64,000 bases of DNA, from NCBI GenBank assembly GCA_030536295.1, contig JAUNQH010000005.1, forward strand, positions 898-64,897, in the 5' to 3' direction. The stretch's first letter is position 1, and every line of letters begins with the position of its first letter. Origin of the DNA: Clostridia bacterium. Its GTDB lineage: Bacteria > Bacillota > Clostridia > Christensenellales > Aristaeellaceae. A model generated the notes under the pieces. The model saw only the letters and a program-made list of their open reading frames with translations. It did no database searches and was not told the DNA's origin. This document shows, piece by piece, positions 23,142-45,510 of the stretch. The position numbers were made by a program, and so were the translations under genes.

Positions 23142-23924
23142 ATGGATTATGAGGTTATCGATTTTCACACGCATCCATTTTGGGAACCTTCTCAGAATAT
23201 CTGTCATCACAAAGAGGCATGTAATATGTCAGCCGGAAATACAAGGGTTCTCATGGAAAACCTGGGGATAACAAAAATCTGTGGGTCTGTACTGCGTCCG
23301 GGACAGAAAAATGTGCCGGTAAAGTGGAATATGATCCGGCAGTTGAATGATGACGCGCTCCGGCTTCAGAAAATATATGGTGACTTTTATGTGCCCGGCT
23401 TTCATGTTCATCCTCATTTTGTTAAAGAATCATGTGAGGAAATTGAACGTATGGCCGGGTTGGGTATTAAGCTGATTGGTGAATTGTGTCCATATATGCA
23501 TGGGAACTGGTCCTATGATGAAAGTGGATTTGATACAATTCTGGAATGCGCGGAAGCACACGGAATGGTTATCAGCTTTCATGGTATGTTTGAAGATGCC
23601 ATGGATAATATGGTTAAGCGTCACCCGAACACTGTTTTGATCTCTGCTCATCCGGGAGAGTACAAAGAATTCATGCGCAACATGAAACGTATGGCATGGA
23701 GCAAAAACTTCTATATGGATGTATCCGGGTATGGGATTTTCCGCTATGGGATGCTGCGGTACGCCATAGACCGATATGGAGCAGAAAGATTTATCTTTGG
23801 AAGCGATTATCCGACTTGTAATCCGGCTATGTATCTGGGCGGGGTAATGATGGATCCGCTTCTTGCCGAAGATGAGAAAAAGGCGATATTATCAGGCAAT
23901 ATAAAACGAATACTGAACATTTGA
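23142..23924 (+). CDS. amidohydrolase family protein (Amidohydro_2 TIM barrel)
   Basis: IDFHTH, IGEL, AHPG, FIFGSDYP. Confidence 0.88.
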   Translation: MDYEVIDFHTHPFWEPSQNICHHKEACNMSAGNTRVLMENLGITKICGSVLRPGQKNVPVKWNMIRQLNDDALRLQKIYGDFYVPGFHVHPHFVKESCEEIERMAGLGIKLIGELCPYMHGNWSYDESGFDTILECAEAHGMVISFHGMFEDAMDNMVKRHPNTVLISAHPGEYKEFMRNMKRMAWSKNFYMDVSGYGIFRYGMLRYAIDRYGAERFIFGSDYPTCNPAMYLGGVMMDPLLAEDEKKAILSGNIKRILNI

Positions 23925-23988
23925 ATGGCAAGCCGCAATATGAAAGATCGCTGACCTGCCTTTATTGAAAGTAACTTAGAAATCGATA

Positions 23989-24741
23989 CTAAAGGAAGAA
24001 ATAGCTTGAAAACGAATCATCATTGATCGGGTGTCGATCAACCCGGAAACATTTTTCAATGGCTTTTTCTTTCAGACAATCAGCTTTGCTACCCGCGAAA
24101 CCTAAAGTACCTTTATCCAATATAATAAAATAATCGCCCAAACGGATCGCTTCTTCAAGATCGTGAAGGACCAATATGAACGTGGCACCCTCATTGCTTG
24201 CTCTGACTATGGAAGCAGCCGTTTCATTGCGCACGTTTACATCGAGCGCCTCCATAGGTTCATCGAGGATGGTGATGGGGGTGTTTCGGGATAAGATCAT
24301 TTTGAGAAAAGCCAGTCTCTGTTCACCGCCGGAAAGAGTGCGCACGATTTGATTTGCTTTGTCCGCCAGACCGGATGTGATAACTGCTCTTTCCAGAAAA
24401 TCCTTTTCTTTCACTTTTGACAGATTGCTGTGTGCGCATTTTGATTGTAAGCCGGTTTTGAAAAGATCGTATACGGATAAAGACGTTTGCGGCAAAATCT
24501 GCGGCAGAACGGAAATGTGCAATGAATGTTCCTGCATATTCATACCGGATAATGGAACACCATTAAGGGCAATAACACCGTCATACTTCTGGAGCTGGTT
24601 GATACAACGGATCAATGTTGATTTTCCGCTCCCGTTTTTCCCGAGAATCACAGTGATCTTGTGCTCAGGGACACTGAAAGAAATGTCGTCGAGTATCTTT
24701 TTTTTGTTTACAGTTGAAGAAACATGACGGAATTCAAGCAT
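23989..24741 (-). CDS. ABC ATP-binding protein (FecE/BtuD class)
   Basis: GKNGSGKST, LSGGE, LDEP, LHDL. Confidence 0.9.
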   Translation of the reverse strand: MLEFRHVSSTVNKKKILDDISFSVPEHKITVILGKNGSGKSTLIRCINQLQKYDGVIALNGVPLSGMNMQEHSLHISVLPQILPQTSLSVYDLFKTGLQSKCAHSNLSKVKEKDFLERAVITSGLADKANQIVRTLSGGEQRLAFLKMILSRNTPITILDEPMEALDVNVRNETAASIVRASNEGATFILVLHDLEEAIRLGDYFIILDKGTLGFAGSKADCLKEKAIEKCFRVDRHPINDDSFSSYFFL

Positions 24742-25720
24742 TGCTGTTTCTCCTTTGCAGCAGAAAAACGAAAAACACAGGGGAGGCAATAAGCGCAATG
24801 ATCATGCCGGTCGGTAATTCGCCAGGCAAAAACAATACGCGGCTGAGCAGGTCAGAAAGCATAACAAACAGGGAACTGAGCAACGCAGAAGTGACGATTG
24901 AATTCCCGGAACCGGAACCGGTAAGCTTTGCGGCAATCAAAGGAACAACAAGCCCGACGAAGCCGATCAATCCGGCATAACTGACAACGGAACCGCTTGA
25001 AATACAAGCAAGAACGGCAATCAATATCCTGAACCGTTTGACATTCAGTCCCAGTGATGAGGCCAACATGTCGCCCAATGTGTATTTATCAAGATCTCTG
25101 CTGATCAGGACCGATGCTGTAAAACAAAAAAGGATAAGGAGTCCGGGAATGATCAGCTGCTTTAGTTGAACTCCGGAAATATTACCTACGGAAAACGCCA
25201 GATAATCGCTTAATATATCTGAATTCAAGGTATACAGGACTGAAATCAGCGCCTGGGTAAAAGTTGAAAAAGCAATGCCGACCAGAATAATACCATGTTT
25301 TCCTTCGGCGATACGCATGGATAAGGATAAAACAAAAACGACAGCGACCAAAGAACCGAGAAACGCAAACGGCGCCAGCAGAATATCCGTTGCCTGAAAG
25401 AATATCAGGGATATGATAACGCCGAGGCCCGCCCCTGAATTAATACCGATAATATTTGGCCCGGCCAGGTCATTATTCACCAGGATCTTAAGCAGGACAC
25501 CAGATGTGGATAAACCGATCCCTGCCAGTATACTGCCGATCACGCGGGGTAAACGGACCGATAACAGAATGGTACGGTCGGCAAGGCTGATCTGCTGCCC
25601 GAGGATCATTCTGAAAAACGGCGACAGTGAAAAGAATGCCCCTCCCGAAGCAAGGGAGAGAAGAATGAGAATAACATTCAATATTACCAGTACTGTTCTG
25701 ATTATGATTTTACGGTTCAT
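24734..25720 (-). CDS. FecCD/BtuC family ABC permease
   Basis: VRLPRV, NDLAGPNIIGINSGA, GLIGFVGLVVP, GELPTG. Confidence 0.9.
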   Translation of the reverse strand: MNRKIIIRTVLVILNVILILLSLASGGAFFSLSPFFRMILGQQISLADRTILLSVRLPRVIGSILAGIGLSTSGVLLKILVNNDLAGPNIIGINSGAGLGVIISLIFFQATDILLAPFAFLGSLVAVVFVLSLSMRIAEGKHGIILVGIAFSTFTQALISVLYTLNSDILSDYLAFSVGNISGVQLKQLIIPGLLILFCFTASVLISRDLDKYTLGDMLASSLGLNVKRFRILIAVLACISSGSVVSYAGLIGFVGLVVPLIAAKLTGSGSGNSIVTSALLSSLFVMLSDLLSRVLFLPGELPTGMIIALIASPVFFVFLLQRRNSNA

Positions 25721-26636
25721 TTTCAGCAATGCCTTTCATGAGCACGGCACAAAGTTCTTTATATGCCGCTGCCCATCTGGAATTCGGTTTGAAGTGAAAA
25801 AGCTCACGATCCAATATCGATACCTGTCCGGATCTGACAGCATGCAATTCGCACCAGACCGGCAGACTGAAAAAACGGCTGATATTGATCAAACCGGCCG
25901 ACTCATCGCCCATCAATGAAACGAAGATATAATCGGGCTCACTGTAAAGCAAAAATTCAGAGTTTATATTTCCGCCTGAAGAACTGCACTGGTCATAAAT
26001 GTTGACTAATCCGAAATCATTCAGCATTGAACAGACAAAGTGTTCCGCGCTTGTTTTGGCCTTTACCGAATCGCTTGTGGAAGCAGCCCGCAGAAAGAGA
26101 TAGGTTTTTCCGGCGAAGTTATGGTCAGCCAGCAGTGCATTGATCTCCTCCCGGACGGAGATACCGTATGTTATATAAGGCAGATCATTGTGCAATATAT
26201 CGCAAAAGATTTTCAGAACCTCAAGATAATCGTCAAAACATTCAACATGAAACAAAGCAGTCGGAATCCCGGCTTCCTGACAGATCCCCGCCAGTTTTCT
26301 GTGGGAAGCGATATCGGCAGAGCCGATAATGAAATCCGGTTCAGAGGCGAGCAGCATTTCAAGATTGATCTGTTTGCCTGCATCCGGATCCACCAGTAAA
26401 ACATCGTTGCCGGTGATGCCTCTGTTTACAGTTTCACCAATCGTTATGGCAATATTACCGCCGGCAACGGCCCACAGGTCCGCCAGCGAAGAAAACAGTA
26501 CGGCTGTGCGCTGCGGTGTATATGAGAGCTTGATGTGATTCCCCGTACTGTCGATGAATCCATAACTGCTTTCTGCATAAACTGACGGAAGCAAACATAT
26601 AAGTATCAATATGATGATTGTCAGTTTCCTTTTCAT
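25710..26636 (-). CDS. iron-chelate/cobalamin ABC substrate-binding protein
   Basis: Signal peptide; DSTG...PQRTAVL, NLEMLLASEPDFI, ELHAVRSGQV. Confidence 0.85.
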   Translation of the reverse strand: MKRKLTIIILILICLLPSVYAESSYGFIDSTGNHIKLSYTPQRTAVLFSSLADLWAVAGGNIAITIGETVNRGITGNDVLLVDPDAGKQINLEMLLASEPDFIIGSADIASHRKLAGICQEAGIPTALFHVECFDDYLEVLKIFCDILHNDLPYITYGISVREEINALLADHNFAGKTYLFLRAASTSDSVKAKTSAEHFVCSMLNDFGLVNIYDQCSSSGGNINSEFLLYSEPDYIFVSLMGDESAGLINISRFFSLPVWCELHAVRSGQVSILDRELFHFKPNSRWAAAYKELCAVLMKGIAENEP

Positions 26637-27559
26637 TACTCTTTTTCCATGATGGGTTGTTCAAGAATCTCTGCTTTCCGCAGGAGCAGACTGTCGTCAG
26701 AAATATCCTGTATAAACTTCTCTATGCCGATCCGTTCCAGCGTCAAAGCAAACCGCTCCTTTTTAAGTCCGTTGGCTTTATACCAGAGGACCGCTTTTTC
26801 AGCAAAAGCAGGGATATCTTCCGGCTGGATCAGGCAGGGCAGCAGTGTGCCGATCCGCCATGAACGTCCCCAGGTTCCGCCTGCATATACACGGACTTTG
26901 CTTTGAGAATGCAGTGCCTGCCCACGGCAGTTCTGGGCGCACATGCCGCAGTTGATACAAAGTTCCGTATTCAGCGACACTATCCCTTTTACGCGGTTCA
27001 GAGCACCTGTATGACAGGCTCCGGCCGCAAAACATTCACTGCAATTCAAACACCCGGAGTTTTTAAACTCCACGGACTTGCAACCTTCAAAACCGAGGTC
27101 ATTGATGCTCGGCTTCACGCAACTGTTACGGCAGCCGCCGACCGCAATCTTGAATTTATGCGGAAGCGTGATCTGATGGTAGCCGATATAAAGACGTTCA
27201 TGCAGGCGGGCAGCAATGTCCTGCGTATCTATGTTCCCAAAGGAACAAACGGTTCCCTTGCACGCGACAACAGGACGTACGGTCGGACCTGTACCTCCGA
27301 CCAGAAGGCCTTCTTTCTGCAGCTCTTGCTCAACACTGTCAAGCTGCGAAAACGGAATGCCCGGGATCTCCGCGGATTGCCTGCTTGTAAATGTTACTTT
27401 TCCTGCGGCGAATTTTTCCGCGCAGTATGCTATGCAATGCAGCTGGGTGGATGTAAAGACACCGCCGGCAGTAACGATACGGGCAGAAAACTGATCGTCG
27501 TACCGGTTTTTCAGAAAACCGCGCTGTTTTGCGCCGGCGATTTCTTCGGAAGCAGCCAT
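26636..27559 (-). CDS. nitrite/sulfite reductase-family protein with inserted ferredoxin domain (AsrC/Dsr-like)
   Basis: FTSRQ, VRPVVACKGTVC, LPHKFKIAVGGCRNSC (sirohaem-[4Fe-4S] Cys), CINCGMCAQNC, KERF. Confidence 0.85.
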   Translation of the reverse strand: MAASEEIAGAKQRGFLKNRYDDQFSARIVTAGGVFTSTQLHCIAYCAEKFAAGKVTFTSRQSAEIPGIPFSQLDSVEQELQKEGLLVGGTGPTVRPVVACKGTVCSFGNIDTQDIAARLHERLYIGYHQITLPHKFKIAVGGCRNSCVKPSINDLGFEGCKSVEFKNSGCLNCSECFAAGACHTGALNRVKGIVSLNTELCINCGMCAQNCRGQALHSQSKVRVYAGGTWGRSWRIGTLLPCLIQPEDIPAFAEKAVLWYKANGLKKERFALTLERIGIEKFIQDISDDSLLLRKAEILEQPIMEKE

Positions 27560-27683: not shown

Positions 27684-28835
27684 TCAAACCAGCCACTCCG
27701 CGGGAATGGACTCAGCCATATGCTCCGCTCCGGCCAGGGAAGGATGCAGTCCGTCATTAAGGGCATAGACCGGAAGCAAGCATCTGTTTTCTTTCGGATC
27801 GGTAAGCAATTCGGAAAAATCCATATAGCCGTCCGCTTCCGTATTGCTCCGGATCCATGCATTAACCTGTTGACGGAGCTGCTCTTTTTCATCTGTGTAA
27901 GAGCACCATTTACCGAAGGGCGTGATCGTTCCGATCTTTATCCACAGACCATGTTCTTTTGAGATCCGGACATACTCCCGCAGACCGTTGATCAGTTCCT
28001 CCGCCGTCGGAAGATCTGAAGGTGAACGGAAAAAATTGCCGGCTTCCGGATGAATCAGATCATTGACCCCATGAAGCACGATGACACCGCTGACACCTTC
28101 CGTTAATTCCAGATCATGCAAAAAACGATCTATGCCCCGCCGCCCGTAGTGAACATTCTCCAGATGGGTATACTCCCGCAATACACGGTTTCCTCCGATA
28201 GCCCGACGCACGATCGCGATATGTTCAATATCGTCCCGCAGTATTCTCTTTGTCAGATGTTCGGGCCAGGACTGCTGCGTGATGGAGTCACCAAAGACCA
28301 TGATGGCTTTATTCTGAGAGTTGGTCAATACATCGACCGTGTTCAGAAAGTAAAAAGTAGCGATTGGCTTGCTGACCTCGGCTGGAAAGATCAACTTATC
28401 GGAGTATCTTCCTCTGGCAAAATACCCGATCGTCAGCGGGCCGGAAGTGGAGACACCGGAACCCATATCGGTATATCCGTTCAGATAGAAGCTTACCGAT
28501 ATCTGTTCTCCGCGTCTGACCGGAAAGTACAGTGCATCGCTTTTTCTGATCTCACCCGGTACAAGATGAAGCTCCCGTTTTCCGTCAAAGGTCACGTTCG
28601 AAACGGAATCTTTGCGCACATTTCTGTTTGAACCGGAATCGGTTTTCGCTACAGTAACGGTGCTGATGACCGCTTCTTCATATCCATCGAAGTTAGAAAA
28701 GGTGAGTCGGATCATCTCTCCGTCCATGGACGGCGTGATCACATAGCGCAGAGTGAGATCCCTGGCATAGCGTTCAGGGTTTTCTTCTGGTCTGGACAAA
28801 GCATTTCCCCAAATTGATACCCACTTTTTTTCCAT
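27684..28835 (-). CDS. SGNH/GDSL hydrolase
   Basis: FGDSIT, IGGNRVL, HGVND, DGLHP. Confidence 0.9.
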   Translation of the reverse strand: MEKKWVSIWGNALSRPEENPERYARDLTLRYVITPSMDGEMIRLTFSNFDGYEEAVISTVTVAKTDSGSNRNVRKDSVSNVTFDGKRELHLVPGEIRKSDALYFPVRRGEQISVSFYLNGYTDMGSGVSTSGPLTIGYFARGRYSDKLIFPAEVSKPIATFYFLNTVDVLTNSQNKAIMVFGDSITQQSWPEHLTKRILRDDIEHIAIVRRAIGGNRVLREYTHLENVHYGRRGIDRFLHDLELTEGVSGVIVLHGVNDLIHPEAGNFFRSPSDLPTAEELINGLREYVRISKEHGLWIKIGTITPFGKWCSYTDEKEQLRQQVNAWIRSNTEADGYMDFSELLTDPKENRCLLPVYALNDGLHPSLAGAEHMAESIPAEWLV

Positions 28836-28885
28836 AGTCTGCTCTCCTTCAGATCGCTTTGGCATGCCTGAATGAAAACAAAGCT

Positions 28886-31003
28886 TCAGCTTTGAAGAGA
28901 CATCCGGTACTGCAACGGTGTAACGTTGGTTTCGGCTTTAAACACGCGAATGAAGTAACTGGAAGAGGAAAAACCGCATTGTGATGCGATATCCTGGATG
29001 CTGTCCTGTGAAAAGCCCAAAAGCTGCTTGGCCTGTTCCAGACGAACATGAGTCAGGTAGCGTTTGAAGGTCATGTTAGTTTGATCCCGGATCAGTTTTG
29101 TGATCGTGTATTCTGACAGATTGAAGCAATCGATGATATCCGGGATGCCGAATGTCTCATTGCTCAGGTTATCGTTGATGAACTGGATGATAGATTCTCC
29201 GTATTCGTGTTCAGCTTTTGTTTCAACTACGGGACCGCTTCCGATTATATCACCCAGTTCCTCCAGAAACCGGACACGGGCGGCTTTTATCTCTTCTTCT
29301 GTCATACATTTCAGATAATCGGAAAGATGAATGGAATACCCATATTGCTTAAGAATGCCGCCAAGCTGCTCAATTGTTTTACAGTAACTGTGCCAGTAAT
29401 ACAGAAATGAAGGTGTAATATGATCAAGTGTTTTGAAGATGCGAGCGACAGTATCGACACAGGAAGCGTCATTTGCGATGATCTGTGCGCGGAAGAGCTC
29501 AACATCACGCGGATCGGATATGCTGTCTGTATCCTGACTATCCGTAACGGATTCCGAATTCTTGTTCATATTAAGCAGGGCATCCAGAAAGGAACGATGC
29601 AGGTATTTGGTATTTGTACAGATGCTTCCGATCGCCAGTTCAACCCTGCTTCCAAAGTGGTCATTGAACCATTTCCGGAATTCCTCTTCCATATTGTCCA
29701 TATCCGCGGAACCGACGATCATCACCAGCTGCCCCGAACGGAACTGTTCATAGGGTAGAATATGACCGGTGGAATTCAGAATACGGATCGTTTCATTGAT
29801 ATCGGAAAACCGGGAAAGAGGAGAGATGGCAACAAAATGGTACGGATCATCATCATCCGGGTAGTCGATCTGTTCGGTAGGTATACCCAGCAGGAGCATT
29901 TCTATGCTGTGCAGTCTGATCTGCTCTTTTTCGCTGTCGAGCTCAGCACGCAGCTCAGTTTCAAGTGTTTCCTTGCGGGCGATATATTTCGTGATGCTTG
30001 ATATCTCGTCTGAATTTTCATTGGAACCGGTCTGATTTACGATCTGATTCAGCGGTTTATAGGTAAAAAGGATGAAAAACGCAATCATCCCGGCGCAAAG
30101 AATGGCAGAAACTATACCGAAACGGGTCAAGGCTTTTGAATACCCGGAAAACAGCCCGGAGTATGTGGTTTCAGGCATCCGGAGCGTAACGGAGAACCTG
30201 CCGGGATTGTCATAAGTGAAGCAATGAGCGTCTTCACTGGTACTTGCAGTGTAGATACAGGTTCCTTTATAGGATATGCTGTCGATCTCATACAGGCTGC
30301 CGAGAACACCATGGAATGCCTTATCGATGCTTTGCTGATTGATGATGAATACCGCAGCACGGCGATTTTCAGAACTTGAACGGATATAAATGGGCGTAAT
30401 ATAGACTGTTTTCTGAGATGAAAGCAGGGCCTGTGTTGTGAAGAATCTTCCTTCCGAAAAGGAACCAAGCTCTTCAACAAATGCTGTCTGATCAAGCTCG
30501 GGAAGGTATAAACGACAATAAACGGCAGCGGGGATCGTACCGTAATAATCACCGAATTTACTCTTTTCTGAATAACTTGCGTAAAGAAATTTGTCACTGG
30601 CATGATAATAGATGCTGATATGACCCAACAGAGGCATACTTACGGCATAACCATTCAGCATATCGATAGCGGAAGCCGTACTTATTCTGCTGTCCTTATC
30701 TGCTGTGAAATATGAGCTGATCACGGATTCATAGGTATAGGAAGTTTCAATGCATTTGCGGCCGATCTCTTCAAACAGAGATACATAATCCGTCAGTGTT
30801 TCATCAATTGACTTGGCAAGTGCCTGCACATTGTTTTCTGTCGTTTCCTGCAGCTGGCTGTAACTTCTGTTGGAAATGATCAGGGTAGACAGTACAGAAG
30901 TAAGACACAGCAGCATAAGACCGATGCAGATCATCTGAAACAGAAACCGGTGTTTGATGAAGAAACCGGTCCGGTTTGATTTTTTCCTGTCTGATATATG
31001 CAT
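28886..31003 (-). CDS. AraC family regulator with N-terminal membrane-anchored sensor region (YesS-like)
   Basis: Two TM segments; C-terminal RLEQAKQLL...IASQCGFSSSSYFIRVFK...TPLQYR; divergent from the sugar ABC operon. Confidence 0.9.
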   Translation of the reverse strand: MHISDRKKSNRTGFFIKHRFLFQMICIGLMLLCLTSVLSTLIISNRSYSQLQETTENNVQALAKSIDETLTDYVSLFEEIGRKCIETSYTYESVISSYFTADKDSRISTASAIDMLNGYAVSMPLLGHISIYYHASDKFLYASYSEKSKFGDYYGTIPAAVYCRLYLPELDQTAFVEELGSFSEGRFFTTQALLSSQKTVYITPIYIRSSSENRRAAVFIINQQSIDKAFHGVLGSLYEIDSISYKGTCIYTASTSEDAHCFTYDNPGRFSVTLRMPETTYSGLFSGYSKALTRFGIVSAILCAGMIAFFILFTYKPLNQIVNQTGSNENSDEISSITKYIARKETLETELRAELDSEKEQIRLHSIEMLLLGIPTEQIDYPDDDDPYHFVAISPLSRFSDINETIRILNSTGHILPYEQFRSGQLVMIVGSADMDNMEEEFRKWFNDHFGSRVELAIGSICTNTKYLHRSFLDALLNMNKNSESVTDSQDTDSISDPRDVELFRAQIIANDASCVDTVARIFKTLDHITPSFLYYWHSYCKTIEQLGGILKQYGYSIHLSDYLKCMTEEEIKAARVRFLEELGDIIGSGPVVETKAEHEYGESIIQFINDNLSNETFGIPDIIDCFNLSEYTITKLIRDQTNMTFKRYLTHVRLEQAKQLLGFSQDSIQDIASQCGFSSSSYFIRVFKAETNVTPLQYRMSLQS

Positions 31004-31275
31004 AAGGGATCTCCTTTCAGAGACTGAAACATATTATAGCGTTTATAATATAATTTATAGGAAAACAATGTATAAAATCAATATCACTTTTGGCTGATAC
31101 AGCTCCAATCGTTCATAAAAGTGCTATTTATGCTGTTTCGGCTGATTTCTTTTTTTTATGATTGACGGAAATTCGGCGGACAAATAAAGTTGTCGTCGTA
31201 GAGGATAACGGCTTAAGAGCCGATCACACGAGCCGAGGGCACAGACCGGCAATAAGGACAGGCGGAGGATATACT

Positions 31276-32226
31276 GTGAAAGTTAAGTCGTCATTATCGG
31301 TCAGACAAGTTCCATTGAAAGTCAGAATGTGGAACGCACGTTATCTTTATCTTCTTCTGTTGGTACCTTTGGTTTGGTATGTGATCTTCCAGTATATCCC
31401 GATGGCCGGTATCGGAATGGCATTTGAGAAATACCGTTTCAATAAAGGTCTGTTTGGAAGTCCATGGGTCGGCCTCAAACATTTCGAACGTTTGTTCAAT
31501 ACACCTCAGTTCCTTACCGCTCTGAAGAACACGCTCGTCATCAGTCTCACGCGCCTTGTTGTGGAATTTCCTGTTCCTGTGATCCTGGCGGTCATGCTCA
31601 CGGAAATGCGGTTTACCCGTACCGCGAAGATCTATCAGACAGTACTGACCCTGCCGCACTTTCTAACCTGGATCATTCTTGCCGCTATTTTCGGAAACCT
31701 GCTCAACAGCGATGGTGTCATCAATACGATGATCATGAATCTGGGCGGACAGCGGGTCAAATTCTTCACAGACGGCGGCATATACAGAGCTTTTCTGTAT
31801 CTTTCATCAATCTGGAAAGGTGCGGGCTGGAGCGCCATCATGTATATGGCTGTCATTACCGGTATCGATCCCGCCTTGTATGAGGCAGCTACTTTGGACG
31901 GAGCTTCACGTATGCAGCGTATTCTTTATGTGACGCTGCCGCATCTGAAAGAAATCTTTGTGGTCATGCTGGTGCTGAAGATCGGCACTCTGATGAACGG
32001 AGATTTCGAGCAGATCTTCACCACATACAACGCGTCCGTATACAATGTGGCGGATACTATCGATACTTATGTTTACCGCATCACCTTCGAGAAGACCCCC
32101 GATTACTCGTTCTCTACCGCCGTCGGTCTGTTTAAGTCGGTCGTCAACTTCATTCTGCTGTTCGGCTCCGATCGGTTGGCAAAGAGGATCAGCGGTTCAG
32201 GCTTGTTTGGAGGTAGCGAACAATGA
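31276..32226 (+). CDS. carbohydrate ABC permease (LplB/YteP-like)
   Basis: GTG after ggagg; SPWVGLKHF, LPHFL, LYEAATLDGA, IDTYVY. Confidence 0.92.
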   Translation: MKVKSSLSVRQVPLKVRMWNARYLYLLLLVPLVWYVIFQYIPMAGIGMAFEKYRFNKGLFGSPWVGLKHFERLFNTPQFLTALKNTLVISLTRLVVEFPVPVILAVMLTEMRFTRTAKIYQTVLTLPHFLTWIILAAIFGNLLNSDGVINTMIMNLGGQRVKFFTDGGIYRAFLYLSSIWKGAGWSAIMYMAVITGIDPALYEAATLDGASRMQRILYVTLPHLKEIFVVMLVLKIGTLMNGDFEQIFTTYNASVYNVADTIDTYVYRITFEKTPDYSFSTAVGLFKSVVNFILLFGSDRLAKRISGSGLFGGSEQ

Positions 32227-33107: not shown

Positions 33108-33165
33108 GTATATTCAGCTTGGAACAAAGCTAGAATATAAATTTAGAAAGGATTGGTGAAACACT

Positions 33166-35900: not shown

Positions 35901-35901
35901 T

Positions 35902-36876: not shown

Positions 36877-37000
36877 AAGGCTTTAAGGAGGCATGTGAAT
36901 GAAGCGTCTGACACTGCCTCCTGTTTCCTGTATCTGTTTATTTATGAATCACTCAGGAAAGGAGTGAACGGCTGCGATTACAGCCGCTCAAAAAGGGAGT

Positions 37001-37357: not shown

Positions 37358-37441
37358 TGTGCTGAAAGCAGCCACAGCTTGTTTCACATGTGTTGCCGGT
37401 CAATATAGAGACTCGAATAATCCACAAACGGAGGTTGTAAA

Positions 37442-39166
37442 ATGAGCAGGTATTACGCATATACGGATGCTGGGAAACGTCTGGCATTTGAAACCAGAAA
37501 AGAAGGGAAACATGTTTTCCTGACCCTGAAGAAGGAACTTTTTGCCGATGCGGATAAGATATCCCTGCTGCCGGAACTGTCTCAGGCGAAAGCCGGAGAT
37601 GAGGGCTACTATATCATGCCCAGAAACATCGAAATGCGGGGGGATTTTCAGGTTTTCTTTACGCGGCGCGATGACGGCGAAACAGAATACAGCCATCCTG
37701 TCTTGAGCCTTTACGGGGTCAAAAAGCCCGGCTTTTGCTGCCTGATACGTGTTGAGAGAAACTATAAGTTCAGTTACCGGATCGCGGTAAAGGATAACAT
37801 TTATACGATTACACCTGTTGTTGATTTTACAAAACCCGATACCGATCCGCCTTATGATGATATCCGCCTGGAAGTGATCGAATTGCCGCAGGGTGCCGGG
37901 TATGCCGAAATGGCACGGACAGAACGGGAAATCCGGCTTGAACGCGGAGAGATCACTCCTTTACGCAAAAAAATGGAACGGCCTGTTGTGGCGGACGCGG
38001 TAAGGGGACCGCTGATCCGCATCCGCATGGGTTGGAAACAGAGCCCTTCGCCTGTTTTCCATCAGACCCCGGAAAACGAGCCGCCCATGAGGGTGGCCTG
38101 TACCTTTGCCCGTGTGCGGGATATTGCCGATGAATTAAAAAAACAAGGCATTGAACACGCGGACCTCCAGCTTGTCGGATGGAACAAGAGCGGTCATGAC
38201 GGACGTTTCCCTCAATTATTCCCTGTGGATGAACGTCTCGGCGGCGAGGAAGAACTGAAAAAGACTATTCAGTATGTACAGCAGCTGGGATACCGTATAT
38301 CCACTCATACAAACTGGATCGATTGTGTCGAGGTCGCCGATACCTTTACCTGGGATGATGTGGCGCAGGACAAAAACGGGCAGTATCTTCAGATCGGACA
38401 TTATTCCGGCGGCTACGCGTATCATGTGTGTCTGGAAAAGCAGTGGAAGAATGCCCTGCGGGAAGAACCGAAAGTGGCCGCGCTGGGTGAAAACGGCATT
38501 CATTTTACGGATGTGATCTCTATTGTGGAACCGGATACATGCAACGCGCCGGCTCATCCCTGCTATACGAAGGACGCGATCAAAACCGCGCAGCGCATCA
38601 TGCATCTGAACAGTGTCATCTATAACAGCTTCTCTTCCGAGGGAGCTATGGATTTCGCTGTTCCGTATCTGGATTACGCGCTGTATGTCACTTTCGGAGA
38701 CGGGTTCGGTCACAGGGAGTATCCGTTCCATGATCGCTATCTGCCGTTCTGGGAAATGATCTATCACGGCATTCTCCTGTATAATCCCACCAGTCCGACC
38801 GTCAATTTCACTATCAAGGAACCGGAAGCAAGGCTGACATTCATCATGCGCGGCGGACGTCCGTCCTTCTATGTTTTCTCCAAATTCCGCGAGGGCGCGG
38901 CCAACTGGATGGGTACTGTGGATCTTACATCGGACACTGATGAGCATCTGACAGAAAGCGTGAAGGCGATCAGAAAAGGCATGGATCTGTATCAGCCCAT
39001 TGCCGATAAGCAGTTGTGTTATATGATGGACTATACCTTCGAGAAAGACGGCATTCAAGTAGCGCACTACAGTGACGGTTCCCGCATCGCCGGTAATTTC
39101 TCAGACAGCAGGCAGCAGTATGAGGGAAATGAGCTGGAACCGTACGGATATGTTGTTTTGCAGTAA
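37442..39166 (+). CDS. putative glycoside hydrolase (DUF5696 / GH129-GH101-like TIM barrel)
   Basis: GWNKSGHDGRFPQLFP...LGGEEELK...LGYRISTHTN, GIHFTDV, SSEG, PFWEMIYHG. Confidence 0.65.
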   Translation: MSRYYAYTDAGKRLAFETRKEGKHVFLTLKKELFADADKISLLPELSQAKAGDEGYYIMPRNIEMRGDFQVFFTRRDDGETEYSHPVLSLYGVKKPGFCCLIRVERNYKFSYRIAVKDNIYTITPVVDFTKPDTDPPYDDIRLEVIELPQGAGYAEMARTEREIRLERGEITPLRKKMERPVVADAVRGPLIRIRMGWKQSPSPVFHQTPENEPPMRVACTFARVRDIADELKKQGIEHADLQLVGWNKSGHDGRFPQLFPVDERLGGEEELKKTIQYVQQLGYRISTHTNWIDCVEVADTFTWDDVAQDKNGQYLQIGHYSGGYAYHVCLEKQWKNALREEPKVAALGENGIHFTDVISIVEPDTCNAPAHPCYTKDAIKTAQRIMHLNSVIYNSFSSEGAMDFAVPYLDYALYVTFGDGFGHREYPFHDRYLPFWEMIYHGILLYNPTSPTVNFTIKEPEARLTFIMRGGRPSFYVFSKFREGAANWMGTVDLTSDTDEHLTESVKAIRKGMDLYQPIADKQLCYMMDYTFEKDGIQVAHYSDGSRIAGNFSDSRQQYEGNELEPYGYVVLQ

Positions 39167-39211
39167 ATTTCCAACGGGATATGCTGAATTCAATAAAGGA
39201 GGAATAATCAA

Positions 39212-41167
39212 ATGTCAGGGTGTGATAAAGACCGTATCCCGGCATTTCCCCTCATTGTGAATGATCCGTACTTTTCGATCTGGATGCCGGGGGATACTCT
39301 GACTTCGGGAGATACCGTCCACTGGACAGGTCAACGGAAACCGCTGAAGGGCCATCTTGTGATCGACGGAAAGACCTGGCGTTTTCTCGGCCGTTCCGGC
39401 AAGCCTGCCATGGAGACGGTTGAGGTCAAGGTTACTCCGACGGCCACTGTTTTCGTGATGGAAGCGGACGGCGTCAGACTCCGCGTCCGATTCCGTACTC
39501 CGGCTCTGCCTTCCGATCCCGATATTCTCTCTGCTCCTGTCACATTTACGGGTGTTGAACTGCAGAGTATGGACGGGAAAGAACATCAGGCGACTCTGAA
39601 CTATTCGATTTCCACAGCCATCTGTTATGACGGTTCCGTGCAGCCTCCCATGGTCTGCGACAGTTATATCAGGGACGGTCTGGACTTCGCATGGGTCGGA
39701 CAATCCCGACAGAAGGTGCTTTGTCATTCCGGTGATAACATTACGATCGACTGGGGTTATCTGTACGCGGCTGCCCCCGCGGGTATGTGGAAGTTTGATG
39801 TATCGGATGCCGTTATCGCGCTGTCAGGGGAATTCAATGTTTCTTCCCGGCCTGTTCGCAGTTGGTGGATGCAGGGATATGATGATATTTCCTCAGTCGA
39901 TTATTTCGGTACTTTCTGCCGTGCATGGTATATGAGAAACGGACAGACTCTGCCGGGAATGATGGTCCGGCTTGCGGCAAACTACGGGGAACTGAACCGG
40001 GAATGCGACGAACTGGACCGTGACGTGATCGCCGAGGCGCAGAAGATCGGTGGCGATGATTACGCGCTGATCGCATCAACCGCATGGCGTCACACTTTCG
40101 CGGCGCATAAGCTGATCGCCACGCCATCCGGGGAAATGGCAATGCTGTCCAAGGAAAATGATTCCAACGGATGTATCGGTACCGTGGATGTGAGCTATCC
40201 GTCCATTCCGCTGTTCCTGCGCTTCTGCCCGGAATTGGTAAACGCGCTGTGCAGGCCCGTTCTGGAGTTCGCGAGTATGCCGGTATGGGAATTCGATTTC
40301 GCGCCGCATGATGTGGGACGTTATCCCCACGCCACGGGTCAGGTGTACGCGTGCAAACGGTATGCTGCCGGGAACGGAGAAGTATATCCGCCGTATTATT
40401 TATATCCCGCGGGCTGCGATATCTATGAAGATCGTAACCAGATGCCGGTGGAAGAATGCGGAAATATGCTTATCATGATGGAGACCGCGGTTTCCTACGG
40501 TGCGGGGGATGAACTGATCCGGCAGTATATGCCCCTGATCGGGAAATGGGTGGGCTATCTGGACCGGTATGGCGATGATCCGGGCGAACAACTGTGTACG
40601 GATGATTTTGCCGGACACCTGTCGAGGAACATCAATCTGTCCGCAAAAGCAATCGTCGGTATTGCCTGCGTTGGCCGTATCATGAGGCGCGTCGGACGTG
40701 AAGAAGAAGCGGCCAGGTGGGCAGACCGGGCACATGAAATGGCGGAAGGCTGGCTGAAACGGGCAGCCGGAGAAAACGGTACCGCACTGACCTTCGACGG
40801 CAAAGGCTGGAGCATGAAGTATAACCTGATATGGGATCGTGTACTTGATCTGGACCTTCTTCCGGAAGATTTCTACAGGAACGAAGCCACGTCCTATCTC
40901 GAAAAGATGAACGGTTACGGATTGCCTCTGGATAGCCGGGCGGATTACACAAAATCCGACTGGCTGGTGTGGTCCGCGTCCCTGTCACCCGATCGGGACA
41001 CTTTCTGCCGCCTGATCGCGCCTTTGGCGAAATATTTGCGGGAAACAGAAACCAGAGTTCCTTTTTCCGACTGGTATGATACGAAGACCGGACGCTATGT
41101 GGAGTTTATTGCCAGAAGCGTACAGGGCGGCGTATACATGCCTATGTTGACCGGCAACCGGAAATGA
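39212..41167 (+). CDS. DUF5127/DUF4965 'glutaminase A'-like protein (possible six-hairpin glycosidase)
   Basis: PAFPLIVNDPYFSIW, SKENDSNGCIGTVDVSYP, APHDVGRYP, MPVEECGN, QLCTDDFAG, YTKSDW, FSDWY. Confidence 0.85.
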   Translation: MSGCDKDRIPAFPLIVNDPYFSIWMPGDTLTSGDTVHWTGQRKPLKGHLVIDGKTWRFLGRSGKPAMETVEVKVTPTATVFVMEADGVRLRVRFRTPALPSDPDILSAPVTFTGVELQSMDGKEHQATLNYSISTAICYDGSVQPPMVCDSYIRDGLDFAWVGQSRQKVLCHSGDNITIDWGYLYAAAPAGMWKFDVSDAVIALSGEFNVSSRPVRSWWMQGYDDISSVDYFGTFCRAWYMRNGQTLPGMMVRLAANYGELNRECDELDRDVIAEAQKIGGDDYALIASTAWRHTFAAHKLIATPSGEMAMLSKENDSNGCIGTVDVSYPSIPLFLRFCPELVNALCRPVLEFASMPVWEFDFAPHDVGRYPHATGQVYACKRYAAGNGEVYPPYYLYPAGCDIYEDRNQMPVEECGNMLIMMETAVSYGAGDELIRQYMPLIGKWVGYLDRYGDDPGEQLCTDDFAGHLSRNINLSAKAIVGIACVGRIMRRVGREEEAARWADRAHEMAEGWLKRAAGENGTALTFDGKGWSMKYNLIWDRVLDLDLLPEDFYRNEATSYLEKMNGYGLPLDSRADYTKSDWLVWSASLSPDRDTFCRLIAPLAKYLRETETRVPFSDWYDTKTGRYVEFIARSVQGGVYMPMLTGNRK

Positions 41168-41239
41168 CCGGATGAATGCCGGTCACAGTATCTGAATCAA
41201 TATGTTTTTATAAACAAGAATTGAAAGGAGAGGTTTTCA

Positions 41240-42274
41240 ATGTTGCAGCAGGTTATGACAGCCCCCGGTCAGATCACATTTCGTGAGGTGGAGACTCCCG
41301 CTATCGGAGATAACGAAGTTCTGGTCAGGATCAGAAAGATCGGTGTTTGCGGAAGCGATATCCATGTTTATCACGGAAAACATCCTTTCACCAAATATCC
41401 CGTCACTCAGGGGCATGAAGTTTCCGGTTCCGTGGTGGAATTCGGAAAGAATGTGACCGGACTGAAAGCCGGCCAGAAAGTGACCATCGAGCCGCAGGTG
41501 TTCTGCGGAAAATGCTATCCCTGTACCCACGGAAAGTACAATCTGTGCGAAGAACTGAAAGTGATGGGTTTCCAGACCACAGGTACCGCCAGCGAGTATT
41601 TTGCCGTTGACGCGTCTAAAGTGACCGCTCTGCCGGATAATATGACCTACAATGAAGGGGCTATGATTGAACCGCTGGCTGTAACGGTCCACGCGGTCAA
41701 GAGAGCCGGAGATGTTACCGGACAGAAGATCGCCGTGCTGGGAGCCGGTCCCATCGGTATCCTGCTGGCGCAGAGCGCAAAAGCCATGGGCGCTGCTCAG
41801 GTGCTGGTCACGGATGTCAGCGATTATCGTTTGGAACTGGCGAAGAAGTGCGGAGCGGATTTTGCCGTCAATACCCGCAACGAGGACTTCGGTGAGGCCC
41901 TGACAGCTGCTTTCGGACCCGATAAGGCAGACGTGATCTATGATTGCGCCGGCAACGATATCACCATGAATCAGGCTATCCGCTGCGCGCGCAAAGGAAG
42001 CACGATCATTCTGGTCGCTGTATTCGCGGATATGGCGAAGGTCGATCTCGCGGTGTTGAATGACCATGAACTGGATCTTAATACGACCATGATGTATCGT
42101 CATGAGGACTATCTTGATGCCATCCGCATGGTCGGTGAAGGCAAGATCGCCCTGAAGCCGCTCATGAGCAAGCATTTCGCGTTCAAGGACTACAATGACG
42201 CTTATCAGTATATCGATGCCAACCGTGAAACCACGATGAAAGTGCTGATCGACGTGGATGATTCCGAAGAATAA
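41240..42274 (+). CDS. Zn-dependent sugar/polyol dehydrogenase
   Basis: GVCGSD, GHE, CGKCYPC..G.YNLC, GAGPIG. Confidence 0.92.
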   Translation: MLQQVMTAPGQITFREVETPAIGDNEVLVRIRKIGVCGSDIHVYHGKHPFTKYPVTQGHEVSGSVVEFGKNVTGLKAGQKVTIEPQVFCGKCYPCTHGKYNLCEELKVMGFQTTGTASEYFAVDASKVTALPDNMTYNEGAMIEPLAVTVHAVKRAGDVTGQKIAVLGAGPIGILLAQSAKAMGAAQVLVTDVSDYRLELAKKCGADFAVNTRNEDFGEALTAAFGPDKADVIYDCAGNDITMNQAIRCARKGSTIILVAVFADMAKVDLAVLNDHELDLNTTMMYRHEDYLDAIRMVGEGKIALKPLMSKHFAFKDYNDAYQYIDANRETTMKVLIDVDDSEE

Positions 42275-42289
42275 GGGGAGAGGACCGTT

Positions 42290-43198
42290 ATGAAACTGTC
42301 CATGCAGAGCGGAGATCTGCCACTGCAGTTTGGTGTCCAACGGGGTTATGCCCTGATCCGCGAAGCGGGATTTGAAGGGATCGACTGGAGTCTTGATCAC
42401 GCGATCCATCCGTCGAAGATCAGAAATCTGGAATATAAGGGAAGCTGTCTGTTTGAAAGATCTCTGGATGAACTGCTTGAGTATTATGAGCCGTCCCTGA
42501 AGGCAATCAGGGAAAATGAACTCTCGATCTGTCTGGCCCATTCGTTTTTCCCGTCTTATACGGACGGGCATGAAGAATTGATCGACTGGTCAGTGCAGAT
42601 GCATATGAGAGGGATCGAGTTCTGCGAGGTGACAGGTGTCCCTTATTTCGTGATCCACGGAATCGCTGCGGACAGTAAATCCGGAGAACGGCTGAATACA
42701 CGTCTGTACGGACCGCTGGCGGAATTCCTCAGAGATAGGAAGACTGTTGTCTGCCTGGAAAATCTGTTCGTCAATGTTGACGGTCATATGCGTGAAGGTC
42801 ATTGCGGTGATCCGTCGGAAGCCGTCCAAACGATTGACAGGCTGAATGCCATTGCGGGCCGGAAAGCATTCGCGTTATGCCTGGACACCGGTCACCTCAA
42901 TCTGTACGGTAAAGATGCCGTTCGGTATGTTGAAACAGTCGGGAGCCGCATCGCGGCGCTTCATATCCATGACAATCCCGGCTTTGCCGACTGGCACATG
43001 GCTCCTTTGACCGGTTCCTTCCACTGGAAGGAGTGGACGGATGCCATGCGGGCTATTGGTTATAACGGTGACCTCAGCTTTGAAACATTTGCCCAGACGA
43101 ACCGGGTGTATGATCTTGATCCGGATCTTGTTCTGCCTTGGCTGACCATGATCCGGAAGACCGGTGAAAGTATCCGAAAACTGATTGCCGGAGAGTGA
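42290..43198 (+). CDS. sugar phosphate isomerase/epimerase (xylose-isomerase-like TIM barrel)
   Basis: CLEN, LDTGH, LHIHDN, HMAP, SFE. Confidence 0.88.
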   Translation: MKLSMQSGDLPLQFGVQRGYALIREAGFEGIDWSLDHAIHPSKIRNLEYKGSCLFERSLDELLEYYEPSLKAIRENELSICLAHSFFPSYTDGHEELIDWSVQMHMRGIEFCEVTGVPYFVIHGIAADSKSGERLNTRLYGPLAEFLRDRKTVVCLENLFVNVDGHMREGHCGDPSEAVQTIDRLNAIAGRKAFALCLDTGHLNLYGKDAVRYVETVGSRIAALHIHDNPGFADWHMAPLTGSFHWKEWTDAMRAIGYNGDLSFETFAQTNRVYDLDPDLVLPWLTMIRKTGESIRKLIAGE

Positions 43199-43229
43199 AC
43201 CCCGGCAGGAATGATAACGGGGTAAACGT

Positions 43230-44564
43230 ATGTCTGAAGTCCTTGAACTTTATAACAGGATCAACGGTCAGCCTTGTTCCTGCGGAAATACACATAAAAC
43301 ATCCCTCCGCAAATTAGTCGTCGGTTCCGGCGTGATCGGGAATCTGCCGGAGATCGTCCGGGAACTCGGGGCGGAACATCCTTTCCTCCTGGCGGATCCC
43401 AATACCTGGAAAGCGGCCGGACAGAAGGTCAACGATGTACTTGCCGGCAACGGAATGAACGTTTCCCGCTATGTCTTTTCCAAAAGCAGACCCGAACCGG
43501 ATGAAAGCAGCGTGGGAAGCGCGATCATGCATTTCGATCACAGCTGCGATATCGTGATCGGTATCGGGTCCGGCGTGATCAATGATATCGGAAAGATCCT
43601 GAGCAAAACCGCGGGCCGGCCATATATCATTGCAGGAACAGCTCCTTCCATGGACGGATATAATTCCGCCACATCCTCTATGGCAATGGACGGACTGAAA
43701 GTATCAATTCCTTCCGGATGCCCTGATGTGATCATCGGCGATATCGATGTGCTGAAGCTGGCACCCCGGGAGATGCTGATTTCGGGTCTCGGTGATATGC
43801 TGGCCAAATATGTCAGTATTTGTGAATGGCGTATCGCGAATCTGCTGGTTGGAGATGCTTATTGTGAAAACATCGCGTCTCTGGTTCGAATGTCTCTTGC
43901 CGAGTGTGTTAATAACGCGGAAGGTCTGATGGAACGGGAGCCGGATGCCGTAAGGGCGGTGTTTGAAGGTCTGGTCGTATGCGGCGCCGCAATGGAGTTT
44001 GCCGGTCTGTCACGACCTGCATCCGGAGTGGAGCATTATATCAGCCATCTTTGGGATATGCGGGGATTGGCACTGGGTACACCGGTATCCACTCACGGGA
44101 TACAATGCGCGATTGGAACACTGACCGCGCTGCGAGCGTATGAATCTCTCCGGAATGTTGTTCCGGACAGAAAAAGAGCACTTGCTTATGTAAAAGCATT
44201 CGATTTTGAACGCTGGAGTGAAGAATTGCGCGCTTTCCTGGGATCGGGCGCGGAAACCATGATCACCGCGGAAACCCGTGAGCAGAAGTACAGCGTAGAG
44301 AAGCACGCCGCACGGCTTGAACGGATCATCGGGCATTGGGGACAACTGCTTGATATCATGCGAGAAGAATTGCCTGCGGCCGGTGACATCGAAAAGCTGC
44401 TGAAAAAGATCGGCTGCCCGTCCGCACCGGCGGAGATCGGTATTGGAAATGAGCTCCTTCCTATGACCTTCAGAGCGAGCAAAGATATCCGTGATAAGTA
44501 TGTTCTTTCACGGCTTTTATGGGATCTGGGGATCCTGGATGAGGTCGCGGACAAGCTTATATAA
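43230..44564 (+). CDS. araM: sn-glycerol-1-phosphate dehydrogenase (AraM/EgsA family)
   Basis: N-terminal CSCGNTH, GSGVINDIGK, TAPSMDG, GLGDMLAKY, SRPASGVEHYISH, HGIQ. Confidence 0.85.
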   Translation: MSEVLELYNRINGQPCSCGNTHKTSLRKLVVGSGVIGNLPEIVRELGAEHPFLLADPNTWKAAGQKVNDVLAGNGMNVSRYVFSKSRPEPDESSVGSAIMHFDHSCDIVIGIGSGVINDIGKILSKTAGRPYIIAGTAPSMDGYNSATSSMAMDGLKVSIPSGCPDVIIGDIDVLKLAPREMLISGLGDMLAKYVSICEWRIANLLVGDAYCENIASLVRMSLAECVNNAEGLMEREPDAVRAVFEGLVVCGAAMEFAGLSRPASGVEHYISHLWDMRGLALGTPVSTHGIQCAIGTLTALRAYESLRNVVPDRKRALAYVKAFDFERWSEELRAFLGSGAETMITAETREQKYSVEKHAARLERIIGHWGQLLDIMREELPAAGDIEKLLKKIGCPSAPAEIGIGNELLPMTFRASKDIRDKYVLSRLLWDLGILDEVADKLI

Positions 44565-44631
44565 ACAGGCGAAGTATTTGGAAACTGAACAATGAACGCC
44601 GCACATGGCTTATTAGCGGAGGTAAACGGAC

Positions 44632-45510
44632 ATGATCTATGGAGCACTTGAAGCCGGCGGAACGAAAATGGTACTGTCGATCGGCAATGAGGATCACGAA
44701 CTGCTTGAACGGGTGTCCATCCCCACTGAAAATCCTGATATTGTGATCCCTCAGATGACAGAGTGGTTTGCCTCGCGCAAGATCGCCTCCCTGGGAATCG
44801 GGACTTTCGGACCTGTTGATCTGAATCCCGCGTCCGAAACCTACGGGTGGATCACCTCCACGCCCAAGCTGGCGTGGCAGAACTGCGCTCTGATGCCGCT
44901 TATGCGGGATAAACTGGGTGTTCCGGTCAGTATCGATACGGATGTCAATGCCGCGGCACTGGCGGAGTATCGGCTTGGCGCGGCCAAAGGCCTGCACAGC
45001 TGCCTGTATGTGACCGTGGGGACCGGGATCGGCGGCGGACTGATCGTTGAGGACCGACTGGTCCATGGAATGATGCATCCCGAGATCGGTCATATCCTGC
45101 TGCGGTCCTCGGCCGATGATCCTTCTCCGGCCGGATTTTGCCCTTATCACAAAGGCTGCGCCGAAGGTCTGGCCTCCGGTCCGGCTATTGAAAAGCGTTG
45201 GGGCATGAAAGCGAATGAACTTCCGGAAGATCATATCGCCTGGGACATCGAAGCTGACTATCTGGCCCAGGTCTGCATGAATGCCGTTTGCGCGTTCTCG
45301 CCGGAGATCATCATACTGGGCGGGGGAGTTATGCACCGGAAGCATCTGTTCCTGCTGATCCGATCCAGGGTAAAGGAATTGCTGAACAACTATATCCGCG
45401 TGCCGCAGATCATGGAAAAGATCGATGAATATATCGTATCCCCGGGTCTCGGAGATAACAGCGGCGCTCTCGGTGCGCTCCTGCTGGCTATCGACGCGGC
45501 ACAGAACTGA
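44632..45510 (+). CDS. ROK family sugar kinase (fructokinase-like)
   Basis: EAGGTK, FGPVD, TDVNAAA, TVGTGIGGG, HPEIGH, CPYHKGCAEGLASG. Confidence 0.9.
   Translation: MIYGALEAGGTKMVLSIGNEDHELLERVSIPTENPDIVIPQMTEWFASRKIASLGIGTFGPVDLNPASETYGWITSTPKLAWQNCALMPLMRDKLGVPVSIDTDVNAAALAEYRLGAAKGLHSCLYVTVGTGIGGGLIVEDRLVHGMMHPEIGHILLRSSADDPSPAGFCPYHKGCAEGLASGPAIEKRWGMKANELPEDHIAWDIEADYLAQVCMNAVCAFSPEIIILGGGVMHRKHLFLLIRSRVKELLNNYIRVPQIMEKIDEYIVSPGLGDNSGALGALLLAIDAAQN

Follow-up and report, generated by a model that had tools for sequence, protein, structure and literature searches.

A QueG/RdhA-like iron–sulfur protein and a U32-fold partner form a conserved pair beside sugar importers

In a 64,000-nt stretch of DNA (hereafter, the window) from a gut Clostridia bacterium of the Aristaeellaceae (GCA_030536295.1, contig JAUNQH010000005.1), a gene for an AraC-family regulator stands divergent from an operon that encodes a sugar importer. 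Within that operon lie two adjacent genes encoding an iron–sulfur (Fe–S) protein of the QueG/RdhA superfamily, here termed QueGL, and a TIM barrel of the U32 fold, here termed U32L. The plus-strand operon (31162–45510) comprises 12 co-oriented genes with intergenic gaps of no more than 124 nt; a 158-nt intergenic region separates it from the AraC gene, and the two permease genes at its head overlap by 4 nt. On the minus-strand arm, the AraC gene is followed by a GDSL esterase gene, a 124-nt gap, a gene for a small protein resembling sulfite reductase (Sir-like), and a second importer (Table 1). A first-pass annotation, made from the letters alone, had listed these genes, and the open reading frame (ORF) map together with Pfam and NCBIfam scans recovered each of them at its position. 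QueGL and U32L are translationally coupled, with the ATG of U32L located 1 nt after the QueGL stop codon.

Table 1. Features of the locus and its immediate flanks, by position in the window
Feature	Position	Strand	Basis or remark
QueGL, QueG/RdhA-superfamily Fe–S protein, 355 aa, cytoplasmic	34833–35900	+	Profile and fold
U32L, divergent U32-fold TIM barrel, 324 aa	35902–36876	+	Predicted fold
Small cupin, 118 aa	37001–37357	+	Sub-threshold WbuC cupin match
ATP-binding cassette (ABC) permease 1, sugar (CUT1) type	31162–32226	+	BPD_transp_1
ABC permease 2, sugar (CUT1) type	32223–33107	+	BPD_transp_1
Solute-binding protein, large lipoprotein type, 520 aa	33166–34728	+	No Pfam match
DUF5696 protein, putative GH129/GH101-like glycosidase	37442–39166	+	Pfam DUF5696
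"Glutaminase A"-like protein (DUF4964/DUF5127/GtaA six-hairpin), probable glycoside hydrolase	39212–41167	+	
Zn-dependent polyol dehydrogenase, sorbitol-dehydrogenase type	41240–42274	+	
Xylose-isomerase-like TIM barrel, sugar isomerase/epimerase superfamily	42290–43198	+	AP_endonuc_2
Glycerol-1-phosphate dehydrogenase (G1PDH)-like protein, AraM type, 444 aa	43230–44564	+	Under equivalog cut-off
ROK-family sugar kinase	44632–45510	+	
AraC-family regulator, 705 aa	28886–31003	-	HTH_18/HTH_AraC at residues 626–700
GDSL/SGNH esterase, 393 aa	27684–28865	-	Lipase_GDSL_2; 20 nt downstream of the AraC gene
Sir-like protein, small sirohaem-type sulfite/nitrite-reductase-like	26636–27559	-	NIR_SIR_ferr, NIR_SIR, and Fer4
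Importer binding protein	25710–26636	-	Peripla_BP_2
Importer permease	24734–25729	-	FecCD
Importer ATPase	23989–24798	-	ABC ATPase
Amidohydrolase, convergent with the Sir-like cassette	23142–23924	+	Amidohydro_2
Glucuronoyl esterase of carbohydrate esterase family 15 (CE15), one gene past the ROK kinase	46692–47996	-	GCE_fung, E 1.5e-38
Flanking ORF, 480 aa	21635–23077	-	No Pfam match
Flanking ORF, 223 aa	45683–46354	+	No Pfam match

QueGL is a genuine but very distant member of the QueG/RdhA superfamily. Its initial labeling as QueG/RdhA-like was borne out by profile matches and structure comparison, though the protein misses the curated cut-offs: it scored 44 bits against the respiratory RdhA model TIGR02486 (cut-off 160) and 23.8 bits against the QueG model TIGR00276 (cut-off 200), the latter aligning residues 153–214 only and falling to 20.6 bits in a search of the host's own genome. 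A Pfam scan at E values up to 10 returned nothing but a marginal Fer4_7 match. A profile of the QueGL family searched against the PDB matched PceA at 4e-14, NpRdhA at 2e-9, and QueG at 9e-4. When the predicted structure, with a predicted local distance difference test (pLDDT) score of 60, was submitted to Foldseek, RdhA and QueG structures took all of the top 46 PDB matches, and the B12-processing protein CblC came next. QueGL carries one CX2CX2CX3C motif (C199, C202, C205, and C209, all invariant) and three more invariant cysteines, and Arg177, likewise invariant, lines up with Arg305 in the active site of PceA. Homology suggests that QueGL probably binds a corrinoid; base-off corrinoid binding has no sequence motif of its own. 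The host itself uses corrinoids, as its genome encodes proteins with B12-binding domains, which speaks for the host and not for QueGL in particular.

Comparison with the characterized branches of the superfamily places QueGL apart from both. A core fold is common to QueGL and RdhA, including PceA of Sulfurospirillum and Dehalobacter (4UQU, 8Q4H) and the catabolic NpRdhA (4RAS, 6ZXU), and the block around the first CX2CX2CX3C motif matches; NpRdhA and QueGL are both cytoplasmic. Unlike RdhA, QueGL lacks a twin-arginine translocation signal, an RdhB anchor, and a fused reductase domain. Its N-terminus shows no twin-arginine motif, and the adjacent genes encode the binding protein and U32L, with no RdhB. 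It is also about 100 residues shorter than PceA, has an atypical second Fe–S site, and differs further from RdhA in its U32-fold partner, its sugar-locus setting, and its lack of any evident organohalide link. With QueG (TIGR00276; 5D08, 5D6S, 5T8Y), it shares superfamily membership, similar size, and cytoplasmic location. In contrast to QueG, it lacks the tRNA-binding tail, and it is the product of an accessory gene in a catabolic operon that same-genus species do not carry; Pfam scans detected neither the DUF1730 N-terminal domain nor the C-terminal HEAT-like tail. QueG acts reductively at a carbon that bears oxygen, in a ring that resembles a cyclic polyol and is thus chemically near a sugar; the group that it reduces is an epoxide, i.e., a cyclic ether.

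The QueGL family is large. We counted 2836 homologs after clustering at 90%, and an exhaustive profile search yielded 262 clusters (50% identity) at an E value of 1e-30 or better. The QueGL of the window is 57–60% identical to homologs from Lentisphaerota, Kiritimatiellia, Verrucomicrobiota, Alistipes, Prolixibacteraceae, Spirochaetales, and Planctomycetota, and mean column identity across phyla is 68%, with seven invariant cysteines. Many relatives (e.g., P0382, P0386, and P0392) are 750–800 residues in length with two to five matched stretches, representing fused tandem QueG-like modules.

U32L is likewise a genuine but very distant member of its superfamily. It falls short of the Pfam U32 gathering score (PF01136; 15.9 bits against 22.4, E 0.008, over 43 residues only), and the U32-like label is upheld by fold: the best PDB match to the predicted structure (pLDDT 90) is the U32 protein Mk0906 (5D88; E 3.9e-10; template modeling scores of 0.55/0.70), with the next-best fold five orders of magnitude behind at 2e-5. 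Four cysteines (C76, C184, C188, and C218) are invariant across 18 sequences, as are two histidines. The spacing of the cysteines is unlike the canonical U32 pattern; UbiU and UbiV hold a 4Fe–4S cluster on four cysteines, and the four of U32L could hold one as well. At 90% clustering, U32L has 1557 homologs, with a mean column identity across phyla of 60%. None of the known U32 members (UbiU/UbiV, TrhP, and RlhA) is known to have an RdhA-like partner, in contrast to U32L. According to a 2024 review, the only characterized U32 functions are ubiquinone synthesis and RNA base hydroxylation, not catabolism (PMC11574389). Elsewhere in the host genome, two canonical U32 genes score 298 and 228 bits. 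Together with the TIGR00276 result, this sets the pair far apart from the tRNA- and rRNA-modifying orthologs.

More than 1000 loci matched; to place the pair in context, we inspected neighborhoods at 80 loci from species genomes and 80 from metagenomes (160 in total), many of the latter on short contigs. U32L lies directly downstream of QueGL at 45 of the 80 species-genome loci and was detected at 38 of the 80 metagenome loci. The pair occurs in Lentisphaerota, Kiritimatiellia, Verrucomicrobiota, Bacteroidota, Planctomycetota, Spirochaetota, and Clostridia. The homologs have no Pfam domain and carry only the names "hypothetical," "ferredoxin," "epoxyqueuosine reductase," and "collagenase-like PrtC." The first-pass annotation knew of neither enzyme in a described sugar pathway, and our searches of the literature on DUF5696, QueG/RdhA with carbohydrate, U32 hydroxylases, and methyl-glucuronate demethylation found no description of the pair.

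The expected association of the two genes with sugar importers and glycosidase-like genes held across at least six phyla, and hundreds of anaerobes that degrade glycans carry the pair alongside sugar importers. In Firmicutes and Spirochaetes, the operon can shrink to a binding protein, two permeases, QueGL, and U32L; minimal operons with hardly more than an importer and the pair include L091, L093, and L132 (sugar-type ABC importer) and L092 (SSF symporter). SSF symporters, closest to sodium/glucose-galactose transporters, neighbor the pair at 19 of the 80 species-genome loci. DUF5696 genes appear at 12–14 of these loci, often adjacent and once between QueGL and U32L, with GHL6/GH42-like genes at 9 and GH67/DUF4838-like genes, recognized by predicted fold, at 6. 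Other recurrent neighbors include mutarotase-like proteins (several loci), short-chain and Gfo/Idh/MocA dehydrogenases, and an AraA-like isomerase with an FGGY (rhamnulokinase-like) kinase. Nearby regulators belong to the IclR, LacI, and AraC families; at one locus (L032), an AraC-type regulator gene precedes the pair, and a rhamnulokinase-like gene lies alongside in divergent orientation. These neighbors and the minimal operons suggest a role for the pair in turning a modified small carbohydrate, once imported, into a form suited to ordinary metabolism.

Two further associations are confined to subsets of loci. In Bacteroidota, a stand-alone, ~230-aa CBM9_2-like protein is encoded directly beside the symporter, QueGL, and U32L (L004, L045, L057, L061, L134, L139, L147, L149, and L174). 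A short glycyl radical enzyme (689–722 aa) adjoins QueGL/U32L in L022 and L035 (both Alistipes), L005, L018, and L137; it falls under all equivalog cut-offs, and an activase is encoded alongside in L022, L035, and L005.

Within the window, the sugar operon travels as a unit with part of the minus-strand arm. The stretch from 27684 to 45494 is collinear with contigs from two further species (L007 and L009), its nucleotide identity to them being ~80%, and a third species shares 28885–37954; given this collinearity, the gene arrangement is not due to chance. The AraC regulator, whose long N-terminal part matches no known family, is kept in L007–L009 and in a further relative, L095. The 520-aa binding protein is 86–90% identical in L007–L009, and its weak PDB matches are to the oligosaccharide-binding proteins AlgQ1 and AlgQ2. 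The cupin gene follows U32L in L007–L009 and in a distant Firmicute lineage (L132/L133), making the cupin a likely third member of the module. By sequence, the DUF5696 protein is similar to GH129 over the catalytic barrel: residues 150–446 match a GH129 alpha-N-acetylgalactosaminidase (5WZN) at 6e-15, with 3,6-anhydro-D-galactosidase (5OPQ, 8RZG) at 4e-4 and GH101 at 0.02. For the glutaminase A-like protein, a GtaA family member was reported to have no glutaminase activity and weak beta-galactosidase activity (PMC9668830). The G1PDH-like protein scored 188.7 bits against NF002022 (cut-off 413), and its best PDB match is a glycerol-1-phosphate dehydrogenase at 1.5e-44. The downstream catabolic genes, proposed at the outset as part of the pathway, are indeed present in the operon; those for the GtaA-like protein, Zn dehydrogenase, TIM barrel, G1PDH-like protein, and ROK kinase are confined to three close relatives and represent lineage-specific additions outside the conserved core.

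The esterase arm offers an indication of substrate type. L007, L009, and L095 keep the GDSL esterase gene, with a GH3 gene next in line; in one relative, a GH35 gene and a second GDSL gene take the place of GH3. Weaker CE15-like hydrolases than the clear CE15 esterase of the window recur near the cassette in Victivallaceae and Prolixibacteraceae. Such partners (GH3 or GH35, and the nearby CE15) are better matched to an acetylated glycan, whether from plant or host, than to a lipid.

Taking these observations together, we consider it probable, if not strongly so, that an AraC-type regulator controls 27684–45510 as an accessory operon handling an imported glycoside or oligosaccharide and that this operon includes a conserved QueGL/U32L redox module. 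The large binding protein and two permeases would import the substrate, the GDSL esterase would strip acyl groups, and the GH129-like DUF5696 protein and the glutaminase A-like protein would then split the molecule. The polyol dehydrogenase, TIM-barrel isomerase, G1PDH-like enzyme, and ROK kinase could pass the products to central metabolism. The module, whose cofactor, reaction, and substrate we infer, would consist of cytoplasmic QueGL (with an RdhA/QueG fold, two Fe–S sites, and probably a corrinoid), U32L, and in some lineages the cupin. Once a small molecule derived from the sugar is inside the cell, the module may act on it in a redox step that needs no oxygen, most likely the reductive cleavage of a C–O or C–S bond that is closed to hydrolases, leaving an ordinary aldose. 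The central proposal of the first-pass annotation, an undescribed anaerobic redox module within sugar utilization, thus gains support from the conservation of the pair beside importers, and anaerobic sugar breakdown probably includes a step not yet described. More specifically, QueGL and U32L, with or without the cupin, might be a new two- or three-component corrinoid/iron–sulfur enzyme that cleaves the C–O or C–S bond of a modified sugar (an ether, sulfonate, or sulfate ester) as part of a widespread anaerobic route; we offer this tentatively, as a possibility that falls short of probable.

If the pair does act on a modified sugar, it would define a third functional branch of the RdhA/QueG superfamily and the first catabolic role for the U32 fold. 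It would also explain how a sugar derivative closed to hydrolases is used anaerobically and would provide a function for the "dark" glycosidase-like families DUF5696, GHL6, DUF4838-like, and glutaminase A-like. A new corrinoid/iron–sulfur enzyme would, in turn, imply a widespread catabolic route in guts, rumen, digesters, and sediments.

Several observations count against a dedicated sugar-redox module. The QueGL model is poor in the Fe–S region (pLDDT 60), and the second Fe–S site has just three invariant cysteines. A C-terminal four-cysteine motif present in most of the family has been lost from U32L in the window and its closest relatives. The known U32 enzymes hydroxylate their substrates and apparently draw the oxygen from prephenate (PMC11574389), which would be a costly arrangement for a catabolic pathway. 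About a third of the QueGL loci with enough flanking sequence have no U32L nearby, and in L001, QueGL lies among housekeeping genes (nadB and ispD). Finally, the neighbor sets differ by lineage, so the module may serve several pathways. A fumarate-reductase-like flavoprotein encoded beside QueGL in L001 was considered as a partner and rejected upon its identification as the housekeeping L-aspartate oxidase NadB.

The Sir-like gene and its importer behave differently from the sugar operon. The Sir-like stop codon overlaps the start of the Peripla_BP_2/FecCD/ATPase importer. The protein scored 96.8 against the AsrC model TIGR02912 (cut-off 324) and 92 against the DsrB model TIGR02066 (cut-off 341), and it has no AsrA or AsrB partner. 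The 22-kb locus had initially been viewed as one pathway in which the Sir-like gene would be conserved along with the sugar genes; neither part of that view survived. The cassette adjoins the sugar locus only in the window and in one relative (L095), where it lies behind AraC, GDSL, and GH3 genes. Searches of whole genomes (G001–G004) did not find the Sir-like gene in three relatives that keep the sugar locus (L007, L008, and L009) or in L010, which has only QueGL and U32L in common with the window, and it was found at none of the 160 related loci. Past the GH3 gene, the L007 contig has nothing in common with the window. Maliibacterium (L098) has the four genes as a stand-alone cassette beside a LysR gene and feoAB, and in Clostridium botulinum (L097), the Sir-like gene instead has genes for haem and sirohaem synthesis as its neighbors. 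Given that it was not found in the L007–L010 genomes, its stand-alone form in Maliibacterium, and its different placement in C. botulinum, we regard the cassette as an independent unit. In the window, L095, and Maliibacterium, the Sir-like gene is translationally coupled to the importer. That the neighbors are synthesis genes in one case and an importer in the others suggests that, where synthesis is lacking, the importer supplies tetrapyrrole or iron to the Sir-like enzyme. The notion that the locus imports its own cofactor thus finds some support for the Sir-like enzyme and none for the sugar pathway. The convergent amidohydrolase, also counted among the locus members at first, has no homolog in any related locus.

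Some role for sulfur is nonetheless worth weighing. The module could remove a sulfur oxyanion from a sugar, either by desulfonating sulfoquinovose from plant sulfolipid, reductively or through hydroxylation, or by reductive cleavage of a sugar sulfate, with the Sir-like enzyme reducing the released sulfite and the FecCD importer providing its tetrapyrrole or iron. RdhA chemistry, which expels an anionic leaving group, would suit such a reaction, and a sulfite-consuming enzyme stands beside the module in three lineages when the Sir-like neighbor in the window (and L095/L096) is included. The other two cases are cysteate synthases, which convert sulfite and O-phosphoserine to cysteate. In Prolixibacteraceae (L044, L045, L057, and L147), the gene lies in the cassette before the symporter (480 bits against TIGR03844, cut-off 325), and one genome of this family has a second copy elsewhere; in L094, from an unrelated lineage, it directly follows U32L (12125–13390; 461 bits). 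The placement of the Sir-like gene beside sirohaem synthesis in C. botulinum and beside the importer elsewhere is also in keeping with this idea. Against it stand the distribution of the Sir-like gene and the scarcity of sulfatases, encoded at 1 of the 80 species-genome loci and 2 of the 80 from metagenomes. The scans recognized no known sulfoquinovosidase family, and the esterase accompanies GH3 or GH35 in relatives, not lipid genes; the sulfolipid substrate floated in the first-pass annotation therefore has no direct support. Another 20 cysteate synthase genes in Bacteroidales have no QueGL within 8 kb, which rules out the enzyme as a general partner. We judge sulfur removal unlikely. The sulfoquinovose monooxygenase (sulfo-SMO) cluster of Agrobacterium has an analogous layout, in which a sugar-type ABC importer and a glycosidase are joined by a redox enzyme of two components that strips off a substituent, by a reductase, and by a kinase route to glycolysis. 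O2 and flavin are required there, and the proteins are unrelated to those of the window, leaving a functional analogy only.

A quite unlikely alternative would have the module open a sugar ether without oxygen to give an ordinary sugar. Candidate targets would be O-methyl sugars, such as 4-O-methyl-glucuronate (xylan and arabinogalactan) and methylated fucose, xylose, or galactose, or anhydro rings, such as 1,5-anhydro-alditols and 3,6-anhydrogalactose. The established reduction of a cyclic ether by QueG provides a chemical precedent, and the minimal operons imply a product that is a common sugar. Glycosidase-like partners resemble GH67/DUF4838 alpha-glucuronidases and GH129, which includes 3,6-anhydro-D-galactosidase; CE15-like esterases recur; and the habitats are rich in plant cell wall. 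Every one of these links is by weak resemblance, however. Uronate-pathway genes are rare nearby (L004 only), the importers resemble carriers of neutral sugars, no methyl-acceptor or methyltransferase genes were seen in the neighborhoods, and red-algal sugars are unlikely in herbivore guts. We assign a similarly low probability to action on a released aglycone or amino-acid part, from a plant secondary metabolite or glyco-amino acid, as an electron sink or detoxification. Known RdhA substrates are small hydrophobic organics, GH129/GH101 relatives cut sugar–serine/threonine links, and some loci encode an M20 deacylase, a sodium:alanine symporter, aminotransferases, or a glycyl radical enzyme with its activase. 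This reading sits poorly with minimal operons that pair a sugar-type importer with QueGL/U32L and no glycosidase, and the neighboring mutarotase, isomerase, and sugar kinase genes point to a free aldose product. Most improbable by far is a housekeeping role in RNA or cofactor modification (queuosine or U32 hydroxylation), with the genes in a sugar operon by accident. No canonical QueG was found in the host genome, which is 67% complete, and some QueGL homologs do lie among housekeeping genes. Yet the scores against the QueG and RdhA models are far under their cut-offs, no tRNA-binding tail was detected, and the genome already has its two canonical U32 genes. Across phyla, moreover, the pair is found consistently behind sugar importers and under sugar-type regulators, and the gene is missing from close relatives of the host, as described below.

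The distribution of QueGL within the host's own lineage is that of an accessory gene. The QueGL profile found no match in 53 other same-genus species and one among 60 same-family genomes, many of them >85% complete. Between ~22 and 46 kb, the window has a G+C content of 45–54%, against 52–66% for most of the flanks. The locus is probably a low-GC accessory island acquired horizontally, with both the sugar operon and the Sir-like cassette inside. An Rfam scan of the whole window found no riboswitch, including the cobalamin riboswitch, and a promoter and terminator scan gave counts at background level; a look-up for 31101–41100 listed no public sequencing run, RNA included. The pair's habitats (rumen, hindgut, and digesters) are rich in plant cell wall. 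One carrier, Oligosphaera ethanolica DSM 24202 (L036), is in culture, which makes the role of the pair directly testable.

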